From the NCBI GenBank assembly GCA_013426185.1, contig CP058602.1, positions 74,231 to 138,230 of the forward strand: DNA of 64,000 bases, read 5' to 3'. How positions within the stretch are numbered: the stretch's first letter is position 1; every line of letters starts with the position of its first letter. The notes beneath the pieces were generated by a model, which had not been told where the DNA came from, did no database searches, and saw only the letters and a list, made by a program, of their open reading frames with translations. This DNA is from Candidatus Woesebacteria bacterium. GTDB taxonomy: Bacteria; Patescibacteriota; Microgenomatia; UBA8517. Shown here piece by piece: positions 6,119 through 62,956 of this stretch. The position numbers and the translations under genes are program-made.

Positions 6119-6558
6119 AACCTAAATATTAAAACTGTTTTTTTATTTTTTCTCAAGAGGAGAAATTAACTTAAAACTTAAAAGTCAAAAGTCAAAAATA
6201 TAATTCAAAACTCAAAACTCAAAAGTCAAAACTTTCTAATTAGATTATAGATTTTGGATTATAGATTATAGAATTTTGATTTAGGATTTAAGATTTATGA
6301 ATTAAGATAGCAAACAACTCCGACAGCTGACAACTGATAGCTGAAATCCGAATTCTTTTAACTTTTAACTTTGAACTTTTAACTATTTATTAATTTTGCT
6401 TTCTACTTACTACTTTCTACTTGGATCTCTCATAATGCATATACTGTCTTCCGACTAGCTTTGACTGAATCCCGATAGCTTATATCCGACGGCTGATTTC
6501 TGACGTCCGATATCCGACGTTCGATATCCGATATCCGACGACCGACAGCTGACGTCTG
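6119..6558. repeat. mosaic intergenic repeat copy R1 (minus orientation: AT-array, heptamer array, CCGAYATC octamer array)
   Basis: shares long near-identical modules with 14 other intergenic regions in window. Confidence 0.9.
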
Positions 6559-13446: not shown

Positions 13447-13764
13447 TGCGAAACGGTCGAAGCTAGCCGTAAGATTGTATCTAGTATCTAGTATCTTGTA
13501 TTATGTATTATACAGGGAATAAAAGTAGAAAGTAGAATGTAGTAAGTAGAAAGCAACGGATTTCAGATATCAGCTGTCGGATATCAGATATCGGACGTAG
13601 GCTTTCAGCTATCAGAGCTAGTCGGAGCTGATCAGAAACTTGTATCTAGTATCTTGTATTATGTATTATGCATGAAAATGCATTATCCCCATAATACATA
13701 ATTCATAATACACAATACTAAATTCTTTTCCCTTTGTTCTATGTTCTAATGTATAATTACCCTT
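13447..13764. repeat. mosaic intergenic repeat copy R2 (plus orientation; heptamer module, octamer array, 56-nt palindrome, ccctttgttct module)
   Basis: module sharing with other copies. Confidence 0.9.
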
Positions 13765-23794: not shown

Positions 23795-24496
23795 TTATTT
23801 CAGATTTTCTTTAAGGTAAGAGATTATTTTGTCTAATTCTCCATCAAGAATCGCTTCAAGATTGCCAAAGGATTTATTTACGCGGTGATCAGTGATCCTA
23901 TCTTGGGGAAAGTTGTAGGTTCTAATCTTTTCTGCTCTTTTGCCTTGGCCGATAGGGGAGCGGTAGCCTGCTATTTCTCTCATTTTTCTTTCTTCTTCGC
24001 GTTCCCAGAGCTTTGAACGCAAGATAGAAAGAGCAATTTGGCGGTTTTGTTCTTGAAAGCGTTCTTGTGAAGCTGTAACAACAATTCCTGTAGGTTTGTG
24101 AATAAGTCTTACTGCAGTTGAAACTTTGTTTACGTTCTGGCCTCCGTGCCCACCTGCTCTAAAAAATTGAATTTCGAGATCTTGGGGGTTAACTGTGATT
24201 TCATTTTCCTTAATTTCGGGCAAAACAGCAACTGTAGCAGTTGATGTATGAATTCTACCTCTTTTTTCTGTCTTGGGAATTCTTTGTACGCGGTGAACCC
24301 CGCTTTCGTTTTTAAGATTATCAAAAGCATTGGGCCCGCTTATGACAAGGGTATTATCATCAACAAGACTTACTCTCCATCCCTTTTTGGTGGCGTAGCG
24401 CAAATACATTCTCAAAAGCTCAGAAGCCCATATTTTAGCCTCGTCTCCGCCTGCCGCACCTCGAGTTTCAAGATAGACTTTTTGGTTGGGAAGCAT
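23795..24496 (-). CDS. prfA: Peptide chain release factor 1, N-terminally short (lacks domain 1)
   Basis: GGQ motif, P-K-T (PxT) decoding tripeptide; only 233 aa, starts at the domain-2 region. Confidence 0.75.
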
Positions 24497-24514
24497 ATTT
24501 TTGGCTTGGGGAAT

Positions 24515-24817
24515 TTAGCGCAATTCGCTCAATGTTTCAGGTTTTTCTAGTTCTTGCCGTATTCTTTTTTCTCTTTTAAGCCTTCTTTTTTCAGCCTTGG
24601 AGATGACTTTTTCTTTAGCCTTGGATTGTTTGCTTAAGAATGCTTCCACTCGACCTGCCGTATCAATATACTTCATTTGACCTGTGTAAAAAGGATGGCA
24701 GGCGGAGCAAATCTCAACATTGATTTCGGGTACTGTGGCACCAGTGGTAAAAATGTTACCGCAAGCGCAAGTTACTTTTGCTTCAGGATACCATGTTGGG
24801 TGAATTCCCTTTTTCAT
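24515..24817 (-). CDS. rpmE: 50S ribosomal protein L31 with ~30-aa Lys-rich C-terminal extension
   Basis: CxxC...CSxCHPFYTG zinc ribbon. Confidence 0.85.
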
Positions 24818-24839
24818 AGCCTGTCAATTATAACAAGTG

Positions 24840-25281
24840 ATATTTAGGATAGCAAGACGGCTATCAGACATCGGCTATCGGTCGTCAGACGTCGGATATT
24901 GGGATTTAGTCGGAGTTGGTCGAAGTTGATCGAAAGATTGTATCTAGTATTTTGTATTATGTATTATGCAGGAAATACAAGTAGAAAGTAGTAAGTAGTA
25001 AGTAGAAAGCATTAATAAATAGTTAAAAGTTAAAAGAATTCGGATTTCAGCTATCAGCCGTCAGCTGTTGGAGTTCTTTGTTATTTTAATTCCTAAATCC
25101 TAAATCAAAATTCTATAATCTATAATCCAAAATCTATAATCTAATTAGAAAGTTTTGACTTTTGAGTTTTGAATTATATTTTTGACTTTTGATTTTTAAG
25201 TTTTGAGTTAATTTGTTAACTGTTAATTGTTATATTGTAATTTTATTCAATAATCTATAATCTAGAATCTATAATCTAACA
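24840..25281. repeat. mosaic intergenic repeat copy R5 (plus; near-complete octamer/heptamer/AT-array order)
   Basis: module sharing; inverted partner at 26188-26627. Confidence 0.9.
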
Positions 25282-26187
25282 ATGTTCTCAAAACCAAGAA
25301 TCAAAGCATATCTTTATCTTACGCTTGTCGCTTTCATCTGGGGATTGGCAGGACCTGTTATTAAATACACTCTAGGCGGCATCTCGTCCTTACCCTTTCT
25401 CACTTACCGCTTTGCTATATCCTCAATAGTGGCTTTAATCAGCTTTAATTTCATAGCCAAAAGAAAGCTTAACACTAAAGAATGGTTTATTGTCATTATC
25501 TACAGTCTTTTTGCCTCAACCTTTTCCCTTTACTTTCTCTTTATCGGCCTTGAAAAGACGACGATGCTTGACACTGCTTTAATCACTACTTTCAATCCAC
25601 TTCTAATTGCAGTAGCTGGATTTTTAGTCTTCAAAGACAAAATAACCTCAAGAGAAAAAGTTGGCATTGCGCTTGCACTTATAGGAACGGTAATTGCCAT
25701 TATTCAGCCGTTAATTGAAAATGAGAATAGTATACGCCTTCAAGGAAATATCTATGTGGTTTTGTATCTTCTGACAAATACAATTGCCGCTATTTTGGCC
25801 AAAAAACTAACCAAACTTGATATTGCCCCGCTTTTTATAACCAACTTTTCATTCATTATCGGATTTTTAAGTCTTTTGCCTCTTTCCATCTATCAAAATG
25901 TAAATCTTATCTCCATAATTTCCCATCTTGAGCTAAGATACCATCTAGGTGTTTTGTTTATGGCCTTAATTTCGGGAAATCTAGCTTATACCCTTTGGGT
26001 AAAAGGACAGAAAAGTATTGAAATAAGCGAAGCTTCTCTTTTCTCTTATCTACAGCCCATATTCTCTACCCCACTTGCAATACTTTGGCTTAAAGAAGAA
26101 ACTAGCAAAACCTTCTTTCTTGGGGCGCTTTTCATCATCATCGGAGTTATTATCGCTGAGACAAAGAAGAGAAGAATTACAGACTAG
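25282..26187 (+). CDS. EamA/DMT-family transporter
   Basis: 10 TM, duplicated EamA domains. Confidence 0.75.
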   Translation: MFSKPRIKAYLYLTLVAFIWGLAGPVIKYTLGGISSLPFLTYRFAISSIVALISFNFIAKRKLNTKEWFIVIIYSLFASTFSLYFLFIGLEKTTMLDTALITTFNPLLIAVAGFLVFKDKITSREKVGIALALIGTVIAIIQPLIENENSIRLQGNIYVVLYLLTNTIAAILAKKLTKLDIAPLFITNFSFIIGFLSLLPLSIYQNVNLISIISHLELRYHLGVLFMALISGNLAYTLWVKGQKSIEISEASLFSYLQPIFSTPLAILWLKEETSKTFFLGALFIIIGVIIAETKKRRITD

Positions 26188-26627
26188 AGAACAGAGATTA
26201 GAGAATAAAATTCTAAATGACAAATTAACTCAAAACTTAAAAATCAAAAGTCAAAAATATAATTCAAAACTCAAAAGTCAAAACTTTCTAATTAGATTAT
26301 AGATTTTGGATTATAGATTATAGAATTTTGATTTAGGATTTAGGAATTAAAATAACAAAGAACTCCAACAGCTGACGGCTGATAGCTAAAATCCGAATTC
26401 TTTTAACTTTTACCTCTTGCCTTTTACCTACTAGGTTAGAACATAGAACAGAGAACAAAGGGGAAAAGTTTTGAACTTAGTATTATGAATTAAGGGGATA
26501 ACGCATTTTCCTGCATAATACATAATACAAAATACTAAATACAATCTTCCGGCCGGCTCCGACTAGCTCCGACAACCAATATTCGATGTCCGATGTCTGA
26601 TATCCGATGTCTGACGTCAGCTGCTTT
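26188..26627. repeat. mosaic intergenic repeat copy R6 (minus; approximate reverse complement of R5)
   Basis: module sharing. Confidence 0.9.
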
Positions 26628-27278
26628 CTACTCTTTTAAAACGAAGATTGTTCTTGCGGAGATGGTTTGTTCTTGAGTTTCACCTGTTGCAATAATTTTA
26701 TCTCCAGCCTCGATATCGGATACTTTGAGGTCATTATTTTCTTGGTCTAGGATGCTTGTGTCTTTGTTTATTTTGACACTGTAGGGTTGGTCATTTTTTG
26801 ATTCAGCGCTTATTTCTTGTTTTCCAACTTTTTTGACGTTTAGTTTGAAAGAGGCTCTCTTGGTTGGGGTAATAGGCTTAACGTTTACAATGCGTGAAGA
26901 TTCCAAAATATTGCCGTTTTTTTCTGTTCCCATTGCAATTATAAAGTCTCCGATAGCAAGATCCTGAGCTTTGATCTGTTTTGCTTTTTCTCTGTTGTCA
27001 ATGATTGCTGTGTCTTTGTTGTAGCTGATTTGTAAGATTTCACCTGACTTTTCCTGACTTTCTTTATTGATTGCAAAGCGGCTAATTTGGATAGTTGATT
27101 CTGATATATCGGTTATTGTACCGATAAAAGCTTTGGGTTTTTGACTGATTTTAATTATTTTTTCCTGCACTTTTTTCCTAATTTCATCGGATGGGGAGGC
27201 GTTATTATTCTGAGCTTTGATAAAAACAGGGTAGAGAAATAAAAGAGTCAAAATAATAAAAGTGATTAATGTTTGCAT
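26628..27278 (-). CDS. hypothetical secreted protein
   Basis: N-term signal peptide, no domain recognised. Confidence 0.4.
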   Translation of the reverse strand: MQTLITFIILTLLFLYPVFIKAQNNNASPSDEIRKKVQEKIIKISQKPKAFIGTITDISESTIQISRFAINKESQEKSGEILQISYNKDTAIIDNREKAKQIKAQDLAIGDFIIAMGTEKNGNILESSRIVNVKPITPTKRASFKLNVKKVGKQEISAESKNDQPYSVKINKDTSILDQENNDLKVSDIEAGDKIIATGETQEQTISARTIFVLKE

Positions 27279-27283
27279 TTTTT

Positions 27284-27712
27284 TTATTTTTGAAAATCTT
27301 GAGAATAGACTATTGGTAATTTAACACTCGAACTTTTATCATCGCCGAAAAAAGAGGTTATTATTATCTCGTTTAGTCCGCTGACAAGAGGAACATCAAC
27401 ATTAAAACCGCCGTCTTTGTCAGCTTTGGTCAAGAAATCTTTTTCCTCGGTGGAAATGACAACCTGTGCTTCAGATTCAGTTATTCCCTCAATACTAACA
27501 GTATTCTCATTAAAGACTTCGTACTCTTCAGGTTTTAGGATAGTAAGTCCACCTGCGGTTTTGGGAGTAGGGGCGACTTGGCTTTGTTGGGTTTTATTTT
27601 CTTGATTTTGCTCGGGCGCTTTCTGATTTGAATTGGCTCTCCAGACACCAAAAGCTATGACCAGTCCAAAGGCTATTCCTGCCAAAAGAGCAAAAATGAT
27701 TTCTTTGCGCAT
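27284..27712 (-). CDS. hypothetical membrane-anchored protein
   Basis: N-term TM, 142 aa. Confidence 0.4.
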   Translation of the reverse strand: MRKEIIFALLAGIAFGLVIAFGVWRANSNQKAPEQNQENKTQQSQVAPTPKTAGGLTILKPEEYEVFNENTVSIEGITESEAQVVISTEEKDFLTKADKDGGFNVDVPLVSGLNEIIITSFFGDDKSSSVKLPIVYSQDFQK

Positions 27713-27774
27713 ATGGGTTATTGCTCGCTTAATATAAGTTTTAAAACTCCATTTGTCAAGCTAAAAAAGCACTC

Positions 27775-28458
27775 TTGTCAAGACATTTTAAGTTTGCTAG
27801 TATCAAGCTAATGGAAATTAATTACCTTGGCCACGCTTGTTTTAAGATCAAAAGCTCAAACACCAAGCTTTTGATCGACCCCTTTGACCCCAAGATGGTG
27901 GGTATAAAAATGCCTCACGAGGAAGTGGACGGAGTTTTGGTAAGTCACCATCACCAAGATCACAGTTTTATTGAGGCGGCGCGGGGTTATCGTAAGATTA
28001 TCGACGGGCCGGGGGAGTATGAAATTGGAGGAATTTCTATCATTGGTTTTCCTACTTATCATGACAACAAAAATGGGGCAGAGAGGGGAGAGAACACTAT
28101 CTATCTTCTGGAGGCAGAAGGCATTCGAGTTTTACATCTTGGAGATTTAGGCCATGTCTTATCAGAAAAGCAGGTGGAAGCGGTGGGTAATGTGAACATA
28201 TTAACCTTGCCTGTTGGTAATAAATATTCTCTTGGACCAAAAGAGGCGGTGAAAGTTGTAAATGATATTGAGCCTCAGATAGTTATTCCCATGCATTACT
28301 TTTTTGAGGGAATTAACAAAGAATATTTTGATGGTCTTTTGCCGGTTGATAATTTCTTGAGTGAAATGGGCCTGCCGGTTGAAAAATTGCCCAAGCTTTC
28401 CTTAAAGTTGGCTGATTTAACTGAGGACCAAAAAGTTGTTTTACTTGAGAGAAAATAA
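27775..28458 (+). CDS. MBL-fold metal-dependent hydrolase (UPF0173-like)
   Basis: HHHQDH motif. Confidence 0.7.
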   Translation: MSRHFKFASIKLMEINYLGHACFKIKSSNTKLLIDPFDPKMVGIKMPHEEVDGVLVSHHHQDHSFIEAARGYRKIIDGPGEYEIGGISIIGFPTYHDNKNGAERGENTIYLLEAEGIRVLHLGDLGHVLSEKQVEAVGNVNILTLPVGNKYSLGPKEAVKVVNDIEPQIVIPMHYFFEGINKEYFDGLLPVDNFLSEMGLPVEKLPKLSLKLADLTEDQKVVLLERK

Positions 28459-29800: not shown

Positions 29801-30062
29801 ACGCCGGAAGACGGTATTTTAGTATCTAATATCTTGTATTATGTATTATGCAGGAAATACAAGTAGAAAGTAGAACGTAGTAAGTAGTAAGTAGTAAGTA
29901 GAAAGCAAAATTCTATAATCTATAATCCAAAATCTATAATCTAATTAGAAAGTTTTGACTTTTGAGTTTTGAGTTTTGAATTATATTTTTGACTTTTGAG
30001 TTTTAATTTTTGAGTTAATTTGTTAACTGTTAATTGTTATATTGTAATTTTATTCCGGGCCT
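29801..30062. repeat. mosaic intergenic repeat copy R7 (plus; heptamer and AT-array modules)
   Basis: module sharing. Confidence 0.9.
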
Positions 30063-30659
30063 ATGTTATTTTACGAAATTTTTCTTAACCTATTAGGTTT
30101 CTTTATTTTCCTTTTTGTTTTCTGGAAAAAGCTGAAAGAGGATTACCTCTCGAGCCAGATTTTTACAACAGCTTTTTATGTTATCTTTTTGGCATCTATT
30201 TTTCTATTGGTTTCTCATTTTTTATTGCCTAACTTTTGGTTTTGGGCTTTATTTTTGGCATTTTTGACTGGAGTTTTTTTGGGAAGGTGGCGATTTTCTC
30301 TTCATTTTTATGAGGTTTATGAGGCAGGAATAGTGGGGCTTTTGCCTTGGTTAAGCTTCTTTTTTCTTCTTGATGCCATGAAGACAACTAGCTGGTATTC
30401 TTTTTGTGGTTTTTTGTTTAGTTGGCTTTTGGTCTTGCTTTATATTTTCCTAAATCTTCACTATAAGAGCTTCAGTTGGTACAAGTCGGGCAAAGTTGGT
30501 TTTTCGGCTTTGGTGGTGACAATAGTCTTCTTTTTGGCAAGGATGATAGTTGCTATTTTTTTTCCCTCTATGGTATCCTTAAGTGGTAGCTTTGAGGCAC
30601 TTATTTCTGGTATCTTTTCTTTTTTTTCTTTTCTGTTATTATTTATTTTGTCAAGATGA
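30063..30659 (+). CDS. hypothetical polytopic membrane protein
   Basis: ~6 TM, no motif recognised. Confidence 0.45.
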   Translation: MLFYEIFLNLLGFFIFLFVFWKKLKEDYLSSQIFTTAFYVIFLASIFLLVSHFLLPNFWFWALFLAFLTGVFLGRWRFSLHFYEVYEAGIVGLLPWLSFFFLLDAMKTTSWYSFCGFLFSWLLVLLYIFLNLHYKSFSWYKSGKVGFSALVVTIVFFLARMIVAIFFPSMVSLSGSFEALISGIFSFFSFLLLFILSR

Positions 30660-31078
30660 AAAAAATTAAGAATAATGATAAGAAAAAACAGTCTAGGGTC
30701 GATAAACGGCCAGTTAGGTTCCCTGCCAATTTGCTTCAGCCTGTGGGAAAGTTTTTACAGGAGAGGTTGGCTAAATTGGAAAAGACGAAGAAAAATATAG
30801 AGGAAGAGGATCCGTTTCGCGATTCTGACCGTTTGTCTGACAATGCTTTTCCCGATACTGACGCAGCTGAACAATTTGGTCACACTCGAGTGTCTGCTAT
30901 TAAGAAGGAACTTGATAGGAAAATAATTCAAACTAGAAAAGCTCTAACGAGACTGAAAATAGGCAAATATGGTATTTGTGAGAATTGCGGCGAGATGATA
31001 GATACCGACCGTCTTCTTGTTTATCCTGAGGCTACTCTTTGTGTTAAATGTCAAAAGGAAAAGGAAAAGGAAAAGTAG
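30656..31078 (+). CDS. DksA/TraR-family C4 zinc-finger protein
   Basis: C-term CENCGEMID...CVKC. Confidence 0.65.
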   Translation: MKKIKNNDKKKQSRVDKRPVRFPANLLQPVGKFLQERLAKLEKTKKNIEEEDPFRDSDRLSDNAFPDTDAAEQFGHTRVSAIKKELDRKIIQTRKALTRLKIGKYGICENCGEMIDTDRLLVYPEATLCVKCQKEKEKEK

Positions 31079-31803
31079 GAAATAACCTCAAGCCTCAAGT
31101 AATTTACGAAGATGGTTTTTTGTTGGTTTTAGATAAGCCCTCTGGTTGGATTACGAATTCTGCTTTCACAGTAGGCAAAAACCCTGTTGTTCAGGACTTT
31201 ATTCTTAATAATTTTGATTTTGAGATAGCCAAAAATCGGGATTTAAGGTCTGGAATAGTACATCGTTTGGATAAAGATACTAGCGGTCTTCTCTTGGTAG
31301 CCAAAACAGAAAGAGCTTTTAGAGCTCTCCAGAGCCAATTTAAGAGGAGGATGGTAGAAAAAAGATACTTGGCTTTAGTTCATCAAAAATTAGAGCCTGA
31401 AGAAGGCGAGATAAAAGCTCCTGTGGGCCGTTTGCCTTGGAATCGGGAAAGATTTGGTGTTTTGCCGGGTGGAAGGGAAGCGTTTACAAAGTATAAAGTC
31501 TTGAAAAATTTTAAGCATCCTGAAAATGCTGATACTTTTTCCTTGGTGGAAGTAGCTCCAAAAACCGGCAGAACTCATCAGATAAGAATTCATTTTAAGT
31601 ATATTGGACATCCTTTGGTCTCAGATGCTTTTTATGCTGGCCGGAAAACCTCGCGCCGAGATCTAGTGTGGTGCCCAAGACTTTTTTTACATGCTTTCTT
31701 TTTGTCGTTTAATCATCCACAGACGAGTAAAAGTTTAGAAATTAAGATTGACTTACCATCTGATCTTAAAAAAACTCTGGATTTTTTGATTGAGTTAGAA
31801 TAA
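31048..31803 (+). CDS. RluA-family pseudouridine synthase
   Basis: catalytic HRLDKDTSGLLLVAK. Confidence 0.8.
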   Translation: MSKGKGKGKVGNNLKPQVIYEDGFLLVLDKPSGWITNSAFTVGKNPVVQDFILNNFDFEIAKNRDLRSGIVHRLDKDTSGLLLVAKTERAFRALQSQFKRRMVEKRYLALVHQKLEPEEGEIKAPVGRLPWNRERFGVLPGGREAFTKYKVLKNFKHPENADTFSLVEVAPKTGRTHQIRIHFKYIGHPLVSDAFYAGRKTSRRDLVWCPRLFLHAFFLSFNHPQTSKSLEIKIDLPSDLKKTLDFLIELE

Positions 31804-32280
31804 TTAACTCAAAACTTAAAAGTCAAAAGTCAAAAATTAGATTACAGAATACAGATTAGAGATTAGAGAATAAAATTCCAAATTCTAAACCCTGAACCAG
31901 AATAAATTCGATTCAGGGCAGGCAAATTCCAAATTACAAATTCCAATATACAAACAATATACAAGTAATAAACAAATTACAAACAGATTGTGAACACTGA
32001 ATTTAGTATTATGAATTATGTATTATGCAGAAAAATGCATTGTTCCCATAATACATAATACAAAATACAAAATACTAGCTTCCGGCCAGCTTCGACTAGC
32101 TCCGACTAAGTTCCGATAGCCGGCAACTGAAGTCTGACAGCTGATAGCTGATATCCGATGTCTGATATCCGATAGCCGATATCCGATAGCTGAAGTCTCT
32201 TGCCTTTTACCTATTATCATACTTGATACGTGATTGTTGATACTTGATACTTTTTAATAAATTATTAAAATACAACTTGT
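31804..32280. repeat. mosaic intergenic repeat copy R8 (minus; AT-array, hairpin array, palindrome, octamer array)
   Basis: module sharing. Confidence 0.9.
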
Positions 32281-32844
32281 ATGATCCAAGCAACAGATTT
32301 AAGAGCGGGAGTGACTTTTCTTTCTGATAATAAACCCTATCGAGTTATCAAATACAACTTGATCAAGATGGGACGGGGTGGGGCAACGGTTCGCGTGACA
32401 GCTAGGGATTTACTTAGTGGTACGGTTGAAGATAAAACTTTTAGCTCAAATGTCAAAGTTGAAGAAGTAACCACTTCAAAACGAAAGCTGAACTTTCTTT
32501 ATTCGGATAAAAGCGTGGCTACTTTTATGGATCCTGAAAGTTTTGAACAGGTTGAAATTCCTGTTGAAGTTATTTCAGACGAGTTGCCTTATATTAAGGA
32601 AGGCGAATCAGTTGATATTTTGTTTTGGGGAGATAAACCACTTTCGATTGATATACCTCCTAAAGTTACTCTGAAGGTAGTTGAGACAGCTCCTGGTGTT
32701 AAGGGTAATTCTGCTACCAATGTGTTTAAACCAGCAAAACTTGAGAATGGTCTTGAAGTAAAAGTGCCTCTTTTTGTCAAGGAAGGAGACTTGATCAGAG
32801 TTGATACAAGAACTGGGGCGTATGTAGAAAGAGCCAATAAATAG
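32281..32844 (+). CDS. efp: Elongation factor P
   Basis: 187 aa, KOW/OB domains. Confidence 0.85.
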   Translation: MIQATDLRAGVTFLSDNKPYRVIKYNLIKMGRGGATVRVTARDLLSGTVEDKTFSSNVKVEEVTTSKRKLNFLYSDKSVATFMDPESFEQVEIPVEVISDELPYIKEGESVDILFWGDKPLSIDIPPKVTLKVVETAPGVKGNSATNVFKPAKLENGLEVKVPLFVKEGDLIRVDTRTGAYVERANK

Positions 32845-32846
32845 GC

Positions 32847-33308
32847 TTATTTAAAAATCCACCATAGTGAGGTAATTATTGTAATAATTTGAGTTGCAAG
32901 GCCGGGTAGGGGAGAGGTGTCAACTTGTAGCGACTTCTGAAATTTTATCCATTTTTCTATGAATTTTGACTTAAGATCTAGGAAAAAATAAGGAGCTTCT
33001 ATCAAGTCGGGTAAAATAGAGAAGAGGCAGGCGAGAATAATTACCACAAATTGCCCAAAATTTTGGGATTTGAGGAGCGCTATACCAAAGCCTGAAAATA
33101 GAGCCAAGGTAGAATCAGCGACTACAATGTAGGTGGATTTCTTGGTTACCTTGCCAAAGGTTTTCTTTTCTGTATTCAAGTGCGGATTCCAGTGCGGGAC
33201 TTTCTCAAGCACAAGATGACTTAGGAAAGCAAGAGGGAGAGAAATAATGGGATTGGGTATCGTGGTTGCGATAGCTGCTCCTACCATAACATGCGGTGTT
33301 TCAAGCAT
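32847..33308 (-). CDS. hypothetical membrane protein
   Basis: 4 TM, 153 aa. Confidence 0.4.
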   Translation of the reverse strand: MLETPHVMVGAAIATTIPNPIISLPLAFLSHLVLEKVPHWNPHLNTEKKTFGKVTKKSTYIVVADSTLALFSGFGIALLKSQNFGQFVVIILACLFSILPDLIEAPYFFLDLKSKFIEKWIKFQKSLQVDTSPLPGLATQIITIITSLWWIFK

Positions 33309-33384
33309 AGGTAAAATAAATCTTAGCTTTTTTAAAAGGATAAATCAATGATAAAGAAAAGTCTTTATTTATTAGCACTTTATG

Positions 33385-33469
33385 TGGGCAAGGAGGGAGT
33401 CGAACCCTCACGATGCTTTCGCACCACAAGTTTTTGAGACTTGCCTGTCTACCATTCCAGCACTTGCCC
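33385..33469 (-). tRNA. tRNA-Leu (anticodon CAA)
   Basis: cloverleaf: 7-bp acceptor gggcaag/cttgccc, anticodon loop cuCAAaa, long variable arm, T-arm gggttcgactccc; CCA not encoded. Confidence 0.85.
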
Positions 33470-33479
33470 GTATCTATAT

Positions 33480-33932
33480 TTTAACATATAACAGTTAACA
33501 AATTAACAAATTAACTCAAAAATTAAAACTCAAAAGTCAAAAATATAATTCAAAACTCAAAACTCAAAAGTCAAAACTTTATGATTAGATTATAGATTTT
33601 GGATTATAGATTATCGAATAAAATTCCAAATTCCAAGTTCCAAATTACAAGAACTAAATTCTAGATTCTAATATCTAAACTCTAAACAAATTCTAAATCA
33701 CAAAGAAAAAATCCAACTTTGAACTTTTAACTATTTATTAACGCTTTCTACTTACTACTTTCTACTTTCTACTTGTATTCCCTGCATAATACATAATACA
33801 AGATACTAAATACTATAAATACCAGCTTCCGGTCGGCTCTGACTAGCTCCGACTGAATTCCGATGTCCGATATCCGATGTCTGACGTCCGACATCCGACA
33901 TCCGACGTCCGAGGTCTGATGTCCGACGTCCG
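33480..33932. repeat. mosaic intergenic repeat copy R9 (minus; 14-unit octamer array at 3' end)
   Basis: module sharing. Confidence 0.9.
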
Positions 33933-38929: not shown

Positions 38930-39192
38930 AAATTTGGTTTCTTCTTAGTTATTGAAAACTAAAAAAAGACACACGGCGTGTAGGGGAGAGGGGAGTCGGG
39001 TATCCTATAATAATATCCTATAGTTTATGAAAACCGGTCATTTTTCACAGGATAATTTTTATTTTTTCACGAAAGAAAAATAGAATTTAACTTTAGAAAA
39101 AGAACCGAAAAGGAAAAGTGAAGCTAGTTGATATAGTTTGATAGAGTATTAAGCCTCTCTTTTTATCAAAAGCGGAGTGTTTTTGCTAGTCT

Positions 39193-39201
39193 TGTGGATA
39201 A
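39193..39201. promoter_or_regulatory. single consensus DnaA-box (TGTGGATAA) inside ORF-free AT-rich region
   Basis: seen in sequence; isolated, significance uncertain. Confidence 0.25.
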
Positions 39202-39362
39202 CTGTTTTCTGATTTATTGGAAAGTGTTCTTTTAGTTTTGTTTTCTTTATAGAGGGAATTTCTAAAAAACTCTGTCTTTTCCTTTTAATTTTATTAGTTT
39301 CAAAAAAACTGTTCTCTCTTTTTGGTGTGTTTGTTCCTTTTAGTAAAATTCTTTAAAATATA

Positions 39363-39390
39363 ATGTCGCACAAGATAGATTTTACGACAT
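39363..39390. promoter_or_regulatory. dif-like 28-bp site: 11-bp arm ATGTCGCACAA / 6-bp spacer / 11-bp arm TTTTACGACAT
   Basis: 11-6-11 architecture with inverted ATGTCG/CGACAT ends, ~670 bp upstream of xer gene; 10-mer TGTCGCACAA recurs at 40003. Confidence 0.35.
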
Positions 39391-39659
39391 AATGAAAGCT
39401 GTTGGAGTAGGAGGTGCTCCCCCGGGTTTTTATTTTTTTATCCCGGGATTTTTATTTTTGAAATAAATTATTTTTTTATATTTTCTCTTTTTAAATTGTC
39501 TTAGGATTTTTTTATTTCCAAATTAAACCCGAAAAAGCAATCGATATTATAAGAAAGTGTCAAAAGTGCTTTTAGACCGTAATCACGGACAAAAAGGAAC
39601 TTGTTTTAGACGACCAGTTAATCGTCTAAACTGAGAAACCCCCTTTAAAATCGATTTGG

Positions 39660-40000
39660 TGAAGCCAGGTTTGAAGCAAATAAAGAGCAAATTACAAATT
39701 AAAAACAATATACAAATTACAATATACAAATTCTAAATTCTAATATCTAAATCCTAAACCCTGAACCAGAATAAATTCGATTCAGGGCAAGCAAATTCCA
39801 AATCACAAACAAATTAGGAACACTGAACTTAGTTGAATTATGGAAATAATGCATTCACCTGCATAATACATAATACAAGATACTAGATACAATCTTTCGG
39901 CTAGCTTCGACTGAATTCCGATAGTCGAAAGCTGATGGCTGATGACCGACAACCGACATCTGAAGTCTGACAGCTGATAGCCGATGTCTGATGCTGATTA
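39660..40000. repeat. mosaic intergenic repeat copy R10 (minus)
   Basis: module sharing. Confidence 0.9.
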
Positions 40001-40056: not shown

Positions 40057-41007
40057 ATGCAAGATAACCTGCCTAAAAACAGCGAACTGTCGTCCAAGAT
40101 TTCTGCTTTTTTGGAGTATCTTGAGGTTGAAAAGGGCTCCTCTTCCCTAACGGTAAGAAACTATAGACATTATTTAACTCGCTTTTTGTTATGGCTTGAG
40201 AAACAAGGTCTTAAGCCGACTCTTCAAAGTATTAAGCCTGAAGTAATTCATAATTATCGTCTTTATCTTTCGCGCTTGGTTGATAAAGACGGCAGGACTT
40301 TATCCCGCAAGACCCAAGGCTATCATTCAATAGCGCTTCGCAGTTTTCTAAAATGGTGTTTGAAAAATGATCTTGAAGTTATGTCTCCTGAAAAGATTGA
40401 ATTGCCAAAAATTGCCGAAAGACAGGTGAAGTTTTTAACAGGAAAGGAGGTTGATAGGCTTTTAAACGCACCATCTTTGTCAACTATAGTCGGCAAGCGT
40501 GACAAGGCTATTTTGGAAGTTCTTTTTTCAACTGGTTTGCGTGTTTCTGAGCTTGTTTCTTTGAATCGTGATAATGTGGATATTAAAAGGCGTGAGTTTG
40601 GAGTGGTTGGTAAAGGCGGCCGTGCAAGAGTGGTCTTTCTTTCAAGTCGTGCCGCTTCTTATCTTGATGAATATCTTAAAGCAAGAGAAGATAGTTTTAA
40701 GCCGCTTTTTATTAGGCACAGTAGGAATTTGGCGCCCAATTTGAAAGATAACCAGATGAGGCTAACAGCTCGTTCTGTTCAGCGAATCTTGAAAAAATAT
40801 TCTCGCAAGGTTAAGTTGCCTTTTGATGCGACACCCCATGTTTTGCGTCATTCTTTTGCGACCGATCTTTTAATGGCAGGAGCTGATATTAGATCAGTTC
40901 AGGAAATGCTGGGGCATAAAAATATCCAGACGACTCAAATTTATACTCATGTAACCCACCGTCATCTAAAGGAGATTTACGATACCTATCACGGCCGCTC
41001 TAGTTAG
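40057..41007 (+). CDS. XerC/XerD-like tyrosine site-specific recombinase
   Basis: core-binding N-domain, catalytic R...HxxR...Y (HVLRHSF...IYTHV). Confidence 0.85.
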
Positions 41008-43636: not shown

Positions 43637-43679
43637 AAAAATAAGGCTATGTGAGCCTATCCAATTTTATCTTGAAGCA

Positions 43680-44260
43680 AGTTATAAAGCAAGAGGAATT
43701 CGGATATCGGATGTCAGACGTCGGACATCGGCTATCGGCTATCAGACTTCAGTTGTCGGCTATCGGAATTCAGTCGAAGCTGGCCGGAAGCTAGTATTTA
43801 GTATTTTGTATTATGTATTATGCAGGAGGGACGAGTAGAAAGTAGAATGTAGGAAGTAGTAAGGGTTTATAATTTCTACTGTATCCGTGTGCTAGTACAC
43901 GGACCAAACCCTTTAGGGGGCCAGCGGCTATTCTCTACTCTCTATTCTCTATTCTGTTTGTGATTTGAAAAATTAGATAATTGTGATTTGTTTAGAATTT
44001 AGATATTAGAATTTAGAATTTGTATCTTGTAATTTGGAATTTGTAATTTTCTCTTTTTTCTTTGTTCTATGTTCTTTGTTCTAACCTAGTAGGTAAAAGG
44101 CAAGAGTTAAAAGGTAAAAGGAATTCGAGTAGAAAGTAGAATGTAGTAAGTAGAAAGCAAAATTCTATAATCTATAATCCAAAATCCATAATCTAATCAT
44201 AAAGTTTTAGCTTTTGAGTTTTAAATTTTTAGTTAATTTGTTAACTATTGTATACTTATT
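43680..44260. repeat. mosaic intergenic repeat copy R11 (plus) carrying a ~100-bp unique insert (43862-43960)
   Basis: module sharing. Confidence 0.9.
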
Positions 44261-45043: not shown

Positions 45044-45684
45044 TGGCCACACCATGCAACTTATATGGGTCGCTGAATATGGTCGTAGCTGTGGGGGCCG
45101 GTATCAATAATCACGTATCACGAAGCAAGTATCAAGAATGGGTAAAAGGCAAGAGACTACAGCTATCGGATATCAGACATCAGATTTCGGCCATCAGAAG
45201 TTAGTAGAAAGTAGAACGTAGTAAGTAGAAAGCATTAATAAATAGTTAAAAGTTAAAAGTTAAAAGAATTTGGATTTCAGCTATCAGTTGTCTGCTGTCG
45301 GAGTTAATTGTTATCTTAATTCATAAATCTTAAATCCTAAATCTAGATTCTATAATCTGTTTGTAATTTGTTTATTACTTGTATATTGTTTGTATATTGG
45401 AATTTGTAATTTGGAATTTGCCTGCCCTGAATCGAATTTATTCTGGTTCAGGGTTTAGAATTTGGAATTTTATTCTCTAATCTCTAATCTGTATTCTGTA
45501 ATCTAATTTTTGACTTTTGACTTTTGAGTTTTAAGTTTTGAGTTTTGAGTTTTGAATTATATTTTTGACTTTTGAGTTTTAAGTTTTGAGTTTTGAGTTT
45601 TGAATTATATTTTTGACTTTTGAGTTTTAAGTTTTAAGTTAACTTCTAATTTCCCTTTTGTTCTCTGTTCTTTGTTCTATTTTA
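45044..45684. repeat. mosaic intergenic repeat copy R12 (plus; tandem-duplicated AT-array; last module overlaps hppA 3' end)
   Basis: module sharing. Confidence 0.9.
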
Positions 45685-47897: not shown

Positions 47898-48457
47898 TTT
47901 TCAAAAAAAAACAAACTCGTCAACTGCGAGTCTTGAGTTATTCTAGGAATATGTGTTTTTTTTGTCAAGAAGGAAAATTAGTCGGAGCTGGCCGAAAGAC
48001 AATATTGTATCTAGTATCTTGTATTATGTATTATGCAGGAAATACAAGTAGAAAGTAGAAAGTAGTAAGTAGAAAGTAGAAAGCAAAATTAATAAATAGT
48101 TAAAAGTTCAAAGTTAAAAGTTGGAATTTTTTGTTTGTAATTTGGAATTTGTGATTTGTAATTTTCCCTTTGTTCTTTGTTCTAACCTAGTAGGTAAAAG
48201 GCAAGAGGTAAAAGGTAAAAGGAATTCGAGTAGAAATTAGAACGTAGTAAGTAGAAAGCAAAATTCTATAATCTATAATCTATAATCCAAAATCCATAAT
48301 CTAATCATAAAAAGTTTTAACTTTTGAGTTTTAAGTTTTTAGTTAATTTGTTAATTTGTTAACTGTTAATTGTTATATTGTAATTTGTATATTGTTTGTA
48401 TATTGGAATTTGGAACTTGGAATTTGTAATTTTATTCTTTGTTCTTTGTTCTAATTT
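47898..48457. repeat. mosaic intergenic repeat copy R13 (plus)
   Basis: module sharing. Confidence 0.9.
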
Positions 48458-51088: not shown

Positions 51089-51450
51089 ATAAATTACAAA
51101 TTACAAATCACAAATTACAATATACAGATTCTAAATTCTAATATCTAAATTCTAAATCCTGAACCAGAATAAATTCGGTTCAGGGCAGGCAAATTACAAA
51201 TTACAAACAAAAAATTCCAACTTTTAACTTTTAACTTTGAACTTTTAACTATTTATTAATTTTGCTTTCTACTTACTACGTTCTACTTTCTACTTATATT
51301 TCCTGCATAATACATAATACAAGATACTAGATACAATCTTTCGGTCGGCTTCGACTGAATTCCGATAGCCGACAACTGAAGTCTCACAGCTGATAGCCGA
51401 TCTCCGATATCTGACATCCGATCTCCGAATTCCTCTTGCCACTTTTGGAA
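51089..51450. repeat. mosaic intergenic repeat copy R14 (minus)
   Basis: module sharing. Confidence 0.9.
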
Positions 51451-58677: not shown

Positions 58678-59324
58678 AAAGAAAAAGTGCTTTTACTTTA
58701 ATTGAGCTTTTGGTTGTGGTTGCTTTTTTGTCTTTGATGGTTTTGGTGGCTATTTTTGCTTTTAAAGGACCCTTGTTTAAGGGTTATGATGCGAGGAGAA
58801 AGTCAGATCTCAATAGGATTAAAATAGCTCTTGAAGAATATGAGAAAGATCATAATTGTTACCCTCCTTATTTGCCTTCTTGCAAGGGTTCAGATGCTGG
58901 TATTTTAAAATCATATATACCCATTATCCCTTATGATCCTCATACTAAAACTGATTATCTTTATTATCCTGATCCTACATCAACTTGTGCTAAATGGGCT
59001 TGGCTTTTTACCAATCTAGAATATACTGGTGATCCGAAAATTACAGAAATCGGTTGTCAAAACGGCTGTGGACCAAATCAAGCTTATGGTTTTAATTATT
59101 ATGTGACTACTCCTGGTGCTCCTGATCCTTTTAAGTCTGGTAGCGCCAATGTCCCCCCTGATGTCAGTGGTAATTATTATGGTTGTTTTTCTGGGGTTTG
59201 CCAACCAATAGGAGTTAACTCAGATACTCATCTACCAGTCTGTCAACCTAATTTTACTAGTTCTGATTGTCGTAACTTATGTCAAGACGAATCTGGTCCC
59301 ATAAACGAATGCAACTCTTACTAA
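58674..59324 (+). CDS. Type IV pilin-like protein, Cys-rich C-terminus
   Basis: SAFTLIELLVVVAF prepilin motif; listed ORF start 58629 overlaps pilD, ATG 58674 preferred. Confidence 0.75.
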   Translation: MKRKSAFTLIELLVVVAFLSLMVLVAIFAFKGPLFKGYDARRKSDLNRIKIALEEYEKDHNCYPPYLPSCKGSDAGILKSYIPIIPYDPHTKTDYLYYPDPTSTCAKWAWLFTNLEYTGDPKITEIGCQNGCGPNQAYGFNYYVTTPGAPDPFKSGSANVPPDVSGNYYGCFSGVCQPIGVNSDTHLPVCQPNFTSSDCRNLCQDESGPINECNSY

Positions 59325-59881
59325 GCTTAAAAAAAGATTTTTGGAAATTGTTTTTTTTGTTTTTTTTGGTTTCTCTAGCTTCTGCTTTGGGTTTTAATGA
59401 ATCTGACAAAAGAGAAAGAGATGTCAGAAGGAATGAAGATATTAGTAATATTGCCAAGGCAATAGAAGCTTACAGGCAGGCTTTTGGCTATTATCCTGAA
59501 TCAAAAGATGGAAAAATAGTAGCTTGCGCGGGTAATGATACCAAAGTTTTAAGGGATAAAAATGTTCTTGGAATAAGAGAAAAAGGAGCTAGCCGAGATA
59601 AACTGGTTGGTCTTGCTCCTTGTGAGTGGGGTCAAGATCCTCTAAGAGATGTTTCAGATGGTAATTACCCTGCTTTTTTAGACAAACTTCCTCAAGATCC
59701 AGAGTCTAGTCGTGGTTTTAGCTACCGCTACGATTTTGAAAACGGTCGTTACTTTGTTTATGTAGCTTACGAGACAAAAAGAATGCCTGACTATAGCAAG
59801 AATGTATTAAACAAAAAAGTTGCTTGTGGATACAAATTTTGTAATGGAGCTCGTACAAATGGCATTGAAATAGTCAAATAA
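59279..59881 (+). CDS. pilin-paralog-like protein lacking canonical prepilin cleavage motif
   Basis: hydrophobic segment then RDVRRNEDISNIAKAIEAYRQAFGYYP resembling neighbouring pilins. Confidence 0.5.
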   Translation: MSRRIWSHKRMQLLLSLKKDFWKLFFLFFLVSLASALGFNESDKRERDVRRNEDISNIAKAIEAYRQAFGYYPESKDGKIVACAGNDTKVLRDKNVLGIREKGASRDKLVGLAPCEWGQDPLRDVSDGNYPAFLDKLPQDPESSRGFSYRYDFENGRYFVYVAYETKRMPDYSKNVLNKKVACGYKFCNGARTNGIEIVK

Positions 59882-60965: not shown

Positions 60966-61419
60966 TATGCTAGTATCAAGTATCACGAAGCAAGTGTCAG
61001 GAATAGGTAAAAGGCAAGAGGTAAAAGAATTCGGACATCAGACATCGGCCGTTGGCTGTCGGATGTTAGAACTTAGTCGAATCTAGCCGGAAGCTAGTAT
61101 TTAGTATTTGGTATTTTGTATTATGTATTATGGGGATAATGCATTTTCTTGCATAATACATAATTCATAATACTAAGTTCAGTGTTCCTAATCTGTTTGT
61201 AATTTGTTTATTGGTATTTGTATATTGTTTGTATATTGGAATTTGTGATTTGTAATTTTTGTTTAGGATTTAGATATTAGAAATTAGAATTTAGAATTTG
61301 TAGTTTGGTTTGCTGGTTCTTGAATGTAGTAAGTAGAAAAGTATTGTGATTTTTAAAAGTTTTGGCTAGACTTATTTTAGTTGGTTGTTGAGGTTTGGAA
61401 GTTGCTAGTTGTGTTTACA
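60966..61419. repeat. mosaic intergenic repeat copy R15 (plus) inside the pilin array
   Basis: module sharing. Confidence 0.9.
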
Positions 61420-61889: not shown

Positions 61890-62339
61890 ATGGTCTTATT
61901 TGATAACAAACATCTTAATGAAAAGTATCTTAAGGGTTTTACTTTAATTGAGCTTTTGGTGGTTATTTCTATTATTGGGATTTTGATTTCCCTTTCCCTT
62001 TTTGGAATTCAAAATTCGCGAAAGAGCGCAAGAGATGCTAAGCGCAAATCAGACCTTGAATCCATACGCTCTGCGCTTGAGATGTATAAAGCGGATAATG
62101 GCAGATATCCGTCTACTAGTTCTGGTATGAATGCTTCATCCCTCGCTATTTCAAGCTACATTTCTTCTGTTCCCACGGATCCTATTAGTGGAAGAATTTA
62201 TGTATATCGTTGCACTAATGTTAGTGGGTCTAATTGTCTTGCTTATGATTTATGTGCAGCTCTTGAGACAGGAAGCGGTTCCATATCGTGCGGCATAAGT
62301 TGTGGGGTAAGTTGTAATTATAAGACAACAAATCCTTGA
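61890..62339 (+). CDS. Type IV pilin-like protein
   Basis: KGFTLIELLVVISIIGIL; RDAKRKSDLESIRSALEMY; ATG 61890 preferred to TTG 61872. Confidence 0.75.
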   Translation: MVLFDNKHLNEKYLKGFTLIELLVVISIIGILISLSLFGIQNSRKSARDAKRKSDLESIRSALEMYKADNGRYPSTSSGMNASSLAISSYISSVPTDPISGRIYVYRCTNVSGSNCLAYDLCAALETGSGSISCGISCGVSCNYKTTNP

Positions 62340-62350
62340 AAAATGTTTTT

Positions 62351-62956
62351 ATGGAATTAAAAACTGCCTTTAAAAATCGAGGTTTTACTTTAATCGAACT
62401 CCTTGTTTTCCTTCTTGTTGTTTTCATCTTAGTTGGTCTTGGTTACGCCAACTTTCGTAAGTACGCTCAAAAACAGGCTTTATGGGCCGTGGCAAGGCAA
62501 ATAGAAGGCGACCTCCACCTTGCTCAAAGTTATGCAATGTCTGGTAAGGATGCATCAAGTTGTATTTCTGGAACCTACCTTTATGGTTATCAACTTTTTA
62601 AGCTTAGCGATCGTTCTTATAGTATTCGCCGTGTTTGCCGTAGCCCACAAGGTACCTTTATTTATAGCGATGTGTCTCCTTATCGTTATATACCAGAAGG
62701 ATTTGAGATAGATAGAAACTTCTCTTTAGTTTCGTTTCGATCAGTTGTTGGTGGAGTTGATAGCCCCGTGTCTATTAATATTAGACGTAATTTAGCACCA
62801 AGTTCTTATATTGTTATAAATGTTTTATCAACAGGGGCGATTTCTTTATCTTATAGTGATGGAGGATCTGCTATATTTCCTACTTCTACACCTACACCAC
62901 CCGGAGATGTGTTACCGCCACCTGGCATACCCATTAGTACGCCCATTTTGTATTAG
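62351..62956 (+). CDS. minor pilin/pseudopilin-like protein with Pro/Thr-rich C-terminus
   Basis: RGFTLIELLVFLLVV; ATG 62351 preferred to TTG 62336. Confidence 0.7.
   Translation: MELKTAFKNRGFTLIELLVFLLVVFILVGLGYANFRKYAQKQALWAVARQIEGDLHLAQSYAMSGKDASSCISGTYLYGYQLFKLSDRSYSIRRVCRSPQGTFIYSDVSPYRYIPEGFEIDRNFSLVSFRSVVGGVDSPVSINIRRNLAPSSYIVINVLSTGAISLSYSDGGSAIFPTSTPTPPGDVLPPPGIPISTPILY

Follow-up and report, generated by a model that had tools for sequence, protein, structure and literature searches.

A permease gene of the EamA/DMT family lies between two near-identical inverted repeats in a 64,000-nt stretch of the Candidatus Woesebacteria contig CP058602.1 (the window, below), and it runs against both of its neighbours, the gene for ribosomal protein L31 (rpmE) on the left and a hypothetical gene of 216 amino acids (hyp216) on the right. 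The locus is probably a single-gene inversion polymorphism mediated by repeats, produced by homologous recombination between two copies of an intergenic mosaic that point in opposite directions. The inverted repeat, the fixed position of the locus, the opposite orientation of the gene in relatives, four types of repeat junction and a reversed strand-composition signature are observed directly.

The intergenic flanks of EamA, 24818-25281 (464 nt) and 26188-26627 (440 nt), align as mutual reverse complements that bracket the single gene, as the earlier note on this DNA had proposed from the order of their modules. The likeness is concentrated in a core of two 199-nt arms that are 98.5% complementary, with three mismatches (25020, 25023 and 25048) and 1003 nt between the arms. 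Further out, 24909-24975 mirrors 26507-26573 at 87% and 24864-24902 mirrors 26576-26614 at 82%, so that the outer left flank has an 82-87% counterpart in 26507-26614. The stretches 24976-25017 and 26419-26506, and likewise 25217-25281 and 26188-26219, are unmirrored or weakly so (~70%). The flanks are two mosaics of heptamer arrays of opposite polarity; a baseline mirror similarity of 73-82% is therefore expected, and it is likewise seen at the EamA locus in relatives. When the whole window is compared with itself by BLAST, the core pair scores highest among 255 repeat pairs and is the sole pair of at least 100 nt exceeding 97% identity (the runners-up are 222 nt at 94%, 134 nt at 95.5% and 120 nt at 96.7%). 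The likeness of the two flanks thus lies above the family background, in which copies are usually ~75-94% alike, and the suspicion that any two copies might match as well can be set aside. The left boundary given in the earlier note (24840) needs moving: it lies just inside a promoter-like site of the L31 gene (24855-24827; 10 of 12 positions matched, with a TG extension), and the intergenic region starts at 24818.

Sixteen related contigs with an EamA context were recovered, with EamA at 92-100% nucleotide identity and reaching down to two other species at 75% (L008, L009) and 70% (L010) protein identity. The metagenome-contig search with EamA contributed two further loci only, the EamA search of genome contigs gave one unrelated archaeal match only, and exact-protein look-ups for hyp216 returned only contigs broken within repeats. 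EamA occupies the same slot in all 16 (hyp142-hyp216-EamA-L31-RF, where hyp142 is a 142-aa gene and RF a peptide-chain release factor), down to 70% protein identity. The orientation of EamA changes, its location does not. Both neighbours are on the minus strand of the window and EamA is on the plus strand; only in the window and in contig L022 (2 of 17 contexts) does the gene run against hyp216 and L31, and it is co-directional with its neighbours in 15 of the 16 related contigs (L006, L011, L013, L015, L016, L017, L021, L023, L030, L031, L032, L033, L008, L009 and L010). Against L006 (99% protein identity), window positions 25180-26218 are inverted, whereas 23795-25035 and 26514-28458 are collinear, the latter at 99.4%.

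Junctions were read from an alignment of the core copies from all loci together with their flanks. All four types that recombination between inverted repeats can give are present, each at the same core nucleotide, directly after gagttaatttgt. The hyp216-side core runs into the 5' leader of EamA (inner left segment) in L013, L032, L033 and the head of L034, and into the 3' trailer (inner right segment) in the window and the tail of L034. The L31-side core runs into the trailer in L021, L023 and L030, and into the leader in the window and L022. The segments on either side of the junction behave accordingly. The outer left flank stays with L31 in either orientation; on their L31 side, L006, L021, L022, L023, L024 and L030 are collinear with it. 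The trailer follows the EamA stop codon in L001, L006, L021, L023, L030 and L034. Relative to hyp216, the right arm is collinear with L013 4748-4925 (the match extends to 26433), and L032 has the order hyp216, outer right flank, core, inner left segment, EamA, with the full outer right flank present at 92%.

The genetic background on the L31 side was compared over L31 plus RF (1023 nt). Over this length 0-3 nt separate the window from L024, L026 and L025, and 11-13 nt separate it from L021 and L023, which are un-flipped; the flipped L022 is 2 nt away from the un-flipped L030 and L027 and 28 nt away from the window. Both orientation states thus occur in each of two backgrounds, and the haplotype switches inside the core. 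L022 and L030 share the same distal core haplotype and L31 flank but have opposite inner ends, and the same holds for the window versus L021 and L023. As is expected of an inversion between repeats, both breakpoints carry long and highly similar inverted repeats (199 nt, three mismatches), the exchange point falls within the repeat and the arm haplotypes are recombinant.

The composition of the gene points the same way. On the plus strand, the GC skew of third codon positions (GC3 skew) has a mean of +0.28 for plus-strand genes and +0.24 for minus-strand genes (~+0.26 overall); being positive for nearly every gene irrespective of the direction of transcription, it reflects the replication strand. 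EamA, at -0.315, is an extreme outlier among 62 genes and the mirror of the typical value, which argues that the gene evolved on the other strand and that the flip is recent. Judged from the skew, the flipped EamA is co-directional with replication. A similar strand disparity has been reported for another Microgenomates genome (PMC7143001). Milder negative outliers occur in a pilin-like cluster of the window, at 59279-59881 (-0.125) and 62336-62956 (-0.192).

Table 1. Features of the EamA locus and examples of mosaic-bearing intergenic regions, in window coordinates.
Feature	Position	Strand	Remarks
rpmE (ribosomal protein L31)	24515..24817	-	Pfam Ribosomal_L31, E = 1.9e-27; fixed left neighbour, adjoins the locus in all relatives
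Outer left flank	24818..25017	.	L31-side mosaic: GAYRTCGG array, GTCGGAG, GTATTATG, AAGTAGA array
Inverted-repeat arm 1 (core)	25018..25216	+	inner end joined to the EamA 5' side in the window
Inner left segment (leader)	25217..25281	+	65 nt directly 5' of the EamA ATG; moves with the gene
EamA/DMT-family permease gene, 301 aa	25282..26187	+	Pfam EamA PF00892, E = 5.2e-41, two matched stretches
Inner right segment (trailer)	26188..26219	+	32 nt 3' of the EamA stop; moves with the gene
Inverted-repeat arm 2 (core')	26220..26418	-	hyp216 side; ortholog of the one upstream copy present in L013, L032 and L033
Outer right flank	26419..26627	.	hyp216-side mosaic: CATAATAC, CTCCGAC, CCGAYRTC array; stays with hyp216
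hyp216, hypothetical 216-aa gene	26628..27278	-	no Pfam family; fixed right neighbour, kept in all relatives
hyp142, 142-aa gene	27284-27712		after hyp216
Mosaic-bearing intergenic regions (examples)	6119-6558, 13447-13764, 29801-30062, 31804-32280, 33470-33932
Mosaic-bearing intergenic regions (further)	43637-44260, 45044-45638, 47898-48457, 51089-51435, 60966-61380

The origin of the two arms can be followed in the relatives. The core is the native upstream region of EamA; it is present as a single copy between hyp216 and EamA in L013, L033 and the more distant L032 (92% nucleotide identity). L021, L023 and L030 carry an inverted core copy downstream of the gene with the gene still in its ancestral orientation, so duplication or homogenisation preceded inversion. 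In L001, whose EamA is identical to that of the window, the mosaic at the downstream site is only 86% similar and has ~116 nt of additional modules. The copied tract begins and ends within short motifs common to both mosaics, TAAAAGTTAAAAG distally and ACAAATTA on the inner side.

A course of events that would fit these states is as follows. EamA would be an old resident of its slot and, within the species-level clade, would sit between two mosaics of opposite polarity, so that its flanks are always rough mirror images. Some 200 nt of the native upstream mosaic would then have been copied in inverted form to the downstream side, most economically by gene conversion, with a conversion tract that ended in short shared heptamer motifs and left a 199-bp inverted repeat (98.5%) with its arms 1 kb apart. 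General homologous recombination between the arms, which we infer to be of the RecA type, would finally flip the 1,003-bp segment made up of leader, gene and trailer, after which EamA would face away from L31 and run counter to hyp216. The window encodes RecR. There is no invertase or recombinase gene within 10 kb on either side of EamA; the sole recombinase in the 64 kb is a tyrosine recombinase of the Xer type (40057-41007), 14 kb away, which scores as a generic XerC/D/A.

The alternative that comes closest to this reading is a programmed, site-specific inversion (phase variation), in which a dedicated or Xer-type recombinase would toggle the gene at a site in the core and alter expression by way of read-through from hyp216 or antisense transcription. 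Both orientations exist, both states occur in two genetic backgrounds, contig L034 combines the two hyp216-side junction types in a single sample, and a Xer-type enzyme is encoded in the window; we nevertheless regard such a switch as unlikely. Known invertases use repeats of 10-30 bp, which the 199-nt arms far exceed, and the only recombinase is distant and generic. Junctions at the same nucleotide, which a site-specific enzyme would give, are equally expected from homologous recombination of identical arms. The conserved 65-nt leader moves with the gene, which leaves no obvious ON/OFF logic, and flipped contexts are few; nothing in the assembled contigs argues for a programmed ON/OFF switch. 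It is more improbable still that the flip and the duplication were one event, with staggered breaks or template switching at microhomologies inverting the gene and duplicating the 199-nt upstream segment in inverted form. The single core copy upstream of EamA in L013, L032 and L033 and the position of both novel junctions in short shared motifs would suit such a by-product, but L021, L023 and L030, with a downstream core copy and no inversion, show separate events and largely refute it. An error of assembly has also to be considered, in which the gene is truly co-directional and the segment between the near-identical arms was placed the wrong way round. A near-perfect inverted repeat of 199 nt is beyond bridging by short k-mers, and short-read assemblies of the EamA locus do break at the arms: the contigs with the exact gene (L002-L005, ~1.03 kb, from several independent sequencing runs) end ~30 nt into the core on both sides, L024 begins exactly at the inner end of the core, and contigs bearing hyp216 or L31 stop inside repeats. 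L034 (JGI 3300005453, 1554 nt), moreover, is a palindromic and perhaps chimeric contig, with the hyp216 3' end at both ends and EamA in the middle. Against an error stands L022, a MEGAHIT k141 contig from a different sample (ERZ27247260), which independently has the flipped order (L31, outer left flank, core, 65-nt leader, EamA start) and is collinear with window positions 26207-24441 over 1774 nt at 97.5%. The join in L022 rests on real k-mers because the stretch of core that it has in common with other copies is ~113 nt, shorter than k = 141. The window itself crosses 15 repeat-bearing intergenic regions of the kind that breaks short-read assemblies, which suggests that it comes from a long-read or curated assembly. 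We take the orientation as real, and the risk that the window alone is wrong as very slight.

Two further readings concern the flanks rather than the flip. The earlier note had likened the layout to a composite cassette or transposon-like unit, whose repeats would be the ends of an element that moves the transporter between sites. A single gene exactly bracketed by inverted repeats, with copies of the repeat family dispersed over the genome, invites the comparison, and the inverted-repeat-flanked layout and the structural dynamism of the unit are borne out. A mobile element, however, is scarcely credible. The flanks and arms contain no stop-free stretch longer than 47 aa and no transposase, and none is encoded among the open reading frames (ORFs) of the 64-kb window. 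Target-site duplications, looked for at the outer edges, are absent (no shared direct word of at least 5 nt), and the core edges share a single 5-mer, TAGAA, at non-corresponding positions. In the relatives recovered the gene lies in the one slot every time, the repeat-free L008 included, where 57 nt alone lie between hyp216 and EamA and the two flanks share no inverted match. The arms are local intergenic mosaics present here in every strain. The other proposal, of a bidirectional terminator or promoter insulator, is unsupported: no sites resembling intrinsic terminators came to light, the flanks fold unremarkably as RNA (z = -0.7 to -1.6), and an Rfam search of the window matched tRNA-Leu solely, so a terminator or structured RNA was discarded as an explanation. 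In a broader form, the mirrored flanks would be a functional, symmetric regulatory or insulating structure, for instance protein-binding heptad arrays, with the inversion incidental to it. Mirror-image flanks persist across the clade, including the species at 70% protein identity, the arrays have periodicities of 7, 14 and 21 nt, and TTTTGAC heptads adjoin gene starts; there is a precedent in a preprint on V. cholerae, which describes how TTTTGAT heptads bring transcriptional regulators to the ctxAB promoter (bioRxiv 10.1101/2021.05.14.444153). This account is nevertheless very unlikely, since module content varies greatly among strains with 97-99% identical coding sequences, there are neither terminator-like sites nor an excess of RNA structure, and mirror symmetry is a trivial outcome of two family copies with opposite polarity. 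A role for the heptamer arrays in protein binding at the level of DNA is conceivable.

Some observations weigh against a repeat-mediated inversion by homologous recombination, or limit it. For the window itself, the evidence on orientation consists of assembled contigs. RecA is not among the genes of the 64-kb window. The EamA genes of the window and L022 differ at 3 of 906 positions and the gene tree groups the two flipped contigs, so that recurrent flipping and a single flip spread by inter-strain recombination are equally possible. The inverted block of L022 carries an additional gene of 203 amino acids, and the event in L022 may differ from that in the window. L034, with both hyp216-side junction types from one sample, holds either both orientation states of that sample or a chimera formed through the inverted repeat.

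Where strains have the 203-aa gene, it stands between EamA and L31. It lies directly 3' of EamA in L013 (5993-6604), L014, L015, L016, L017, L022 and L031, and is absent from the window, L006, L011, L021, L030 and both distant species. It has no Pfam or NCBIfam match.

For the expression of EamA the flip is probably near neutral, as a promoter would travel with the gene. The 65-nt leader is 100% identical in L015, L031 and L032, though their EamA coding sequences are 92-93% identical, and it contains a weak sigma-70-like match (25227-25254); the inner left segment is thus a probable promoter or leader of EamA. The 57-nt spacing in L008 suggests that hyp216 and EamA formed an ancestral operon. 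In the flipped state, EamA is head-on to any read-through from hyp216.

The mosaics to which the arms belong are a general feature of the window. Tandem Repeats Finder gives 215 rows, most of those listed being short arrays with a period of 7, 14 or 21. Of the 18 intergenic regions that measure 120 nt or more, 15 hold mosaic motifs; in coding DNA the motifs are all but absent. Each mosaic is built of many different heptamers, is 250-600 nt long and has a polarity, with a recurring order of modules in either direction (GAYRTCGG array, GTCGGAG, GTATTATG, AAGTAGA array, TCTATAATC array, TTTTGAC array). Strains with 97-99% identical coding sequences differ strongly in their module content. At the mosaics, short-read assemblies fall apart into contigs of 1-3 kb. 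In metagenome-assembled genomes (MAGs) such repeats can yield, besides fragmentation, orientation errors or palindromic chimeric contigs. A search of one literature collection found no description of heptamer mosaics or inversions in Patescibacteria.

Cyanobacterial short tandemly repeated repetitive (STRR) sequences are intergenic heptamer tandem repeats, and the bacterial interspersed mosaic elements (BIMEs) and repetitive extragenic palindromic (REP) sequences of enterobacteria consist of palindromic units of ~35 nt. BIMEs resemble the mosaics of the window in that they lie dispersed in intergenic DNA, combine short motifs as modules in either direction and can serve as substrates of rearrangement; the mosaics, however, are heptamer arrays and not palindromes, and the likeness is conceptual, no sequence relationship being expected. 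TAACTGA intergenic heptamer repeats are known from Beggiatoaceae, Cyanobacteria and Bacteroidetes (PMC4679880). They and the STRR sequences are the closest counterparts of the mosaics and share with them short arrays of 7-nt units that are confined to intergenic DNA and often adjoin gene starts, whereas the mosaics string many heptamers in a recurring order, with polarity, and are strongly strain-variable.

Bacterial inversions occur between copies of insertion sequences (IS) or rrn operons. Inversion by non-allelic homologous recombination is documented for the chloroplast inverted-repeat flip-flop (PMC7145664), for recurrent polymorphic inversions between inverted repeats in humans (PMC6748972, PMC6044046) and for the flip/flop region of yeast chromosome XIV (PMC9731477). 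The EamA locus has in common with these a unique segment between long, similar inverted repeats, both orientations in nature, the four junctions, an exchange point inside the repeat, and arms that are kept alike as gene conversion would do. It differs in that its arms are a 199-nt piece of heptamer mosaic rather than genes, IS elements or rRNA operons, and in that the flipped unit is a single 1-kb gene of an uncultured host of the Candidate Phyla Radiation (CPR), known from strain comparison. Invertons such as Hin/hix, Fim/fimS and the invertible promoters of Bacteroides (e.g. PMC6458436, PMC12068327) likewise consist of a short DNA segment between inverted repeats in two orientations. In known invertons the repeats are short, a dedicated recombinase is encoded next to them, and inversion as a rule turns a promoter or exchanges coding ends; at the EamA locus, in contrast, the arms are 199 nt long, no invertase is close by, and the inverted unit is an entire gene with its leader. 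The mechanism would thus be of a known kind, and neither a new mobile element nor a new mechanism is revealed. The locus would instead provide a clean natural single-gene inversion polymorphism in an uncultured CPR bacterium, with its four junctions recovered from public metagenomes, and would make the heptamer mosaics substrates of recombination through which near-identical strains come to differ in the order and orientation of their genes.

A more far-reaching idea, which we hold to be rather doubtful, is that the mosaics form a lineage-specific system by which gene-sized segments lying between mosaics can invert and transpose. If so, the EamA flip, brought about by a factor that recognizes the arrays and not by chance homologous recombination, would be a reversible switch, within the population, of read-through or antisense transcription across hyp216-EamA-L31, and the presence or absence of the 203-aa gene would be a product of the same system, as would a block swap that involves the genes for elongation factor P (EF-P), a 153-aa protein and tRNA-Leu; both of these differences adjoin mosaics.

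In that swap, the block of EF-P and the 153-aa gene (plus tRNA-Leu in the window) and a block of a 198-aa gene, a dksA-like gene and a pseudouridine synthase gene have exchanged places between species, with one order in the window (29801-33932) and L006 and the other in the distant species L008 (3237-6533) and L010 (3046-6518). All three boundaries of the exchanged blocks carry mosaics in the window. The second-best repeat pair of the window, 45317-45537 / 31806-32025 (222 nt, 94%, inverted, 13 kb apart), is a potential substrate for a larger inversion. Small non-heptamer insertions within mosaics (L006 9640-9720; L011 3661-3710; L013 5913-5932) carry short palindromes around CCTTTAAAGG and may be a tiny separate repeat family. 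A stretch of ~750 nt on the upstream side of the Xer-type recombinase gene (38930-39690) has few heptamer arrays, lacks any ORF of at least 35 aa and matches nothing in Rfam, even at E = 0.1.

The DNA of the window is chromosomal and belongs to a Patescibacteria (Microgenomates-like) bacterium. Its GC content is ~37%, and its genes are of a housekeeping kind: dnaX, recR, cysS, ddl, those for S2, EF-Ts and ribosome recycling factor (RRF), proS, those for S6, single-stranded DNA-binding protein (SSB) and S18, htrA, the release factor and L31 genes, dnaB, the EF-P gene, gyrA, gyrB and type IV pilus genes. Proteins of ~300 aa with two EamA domains characterize the family, and the 301-aa ORF conforms to this; NCBIfam matches of the protein to specific exporters are all below threshold. 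The protein is identical to QLG69339.1, and its closest named homologues are from a 'Patescibacteria group bacterium' and Woesebacteria MAGs. The peptide-chain release factor next to rpmE (23795-24496, minus strand) has 233 aa, and its PCRF domain is matched at profile positions 100-194 alone, the N-terminal part being missing. The gene call is likewise 233 aa in L006, L008, L010, L013 and the majority of the other relatives; in L015 and L016 it is 229 aa.

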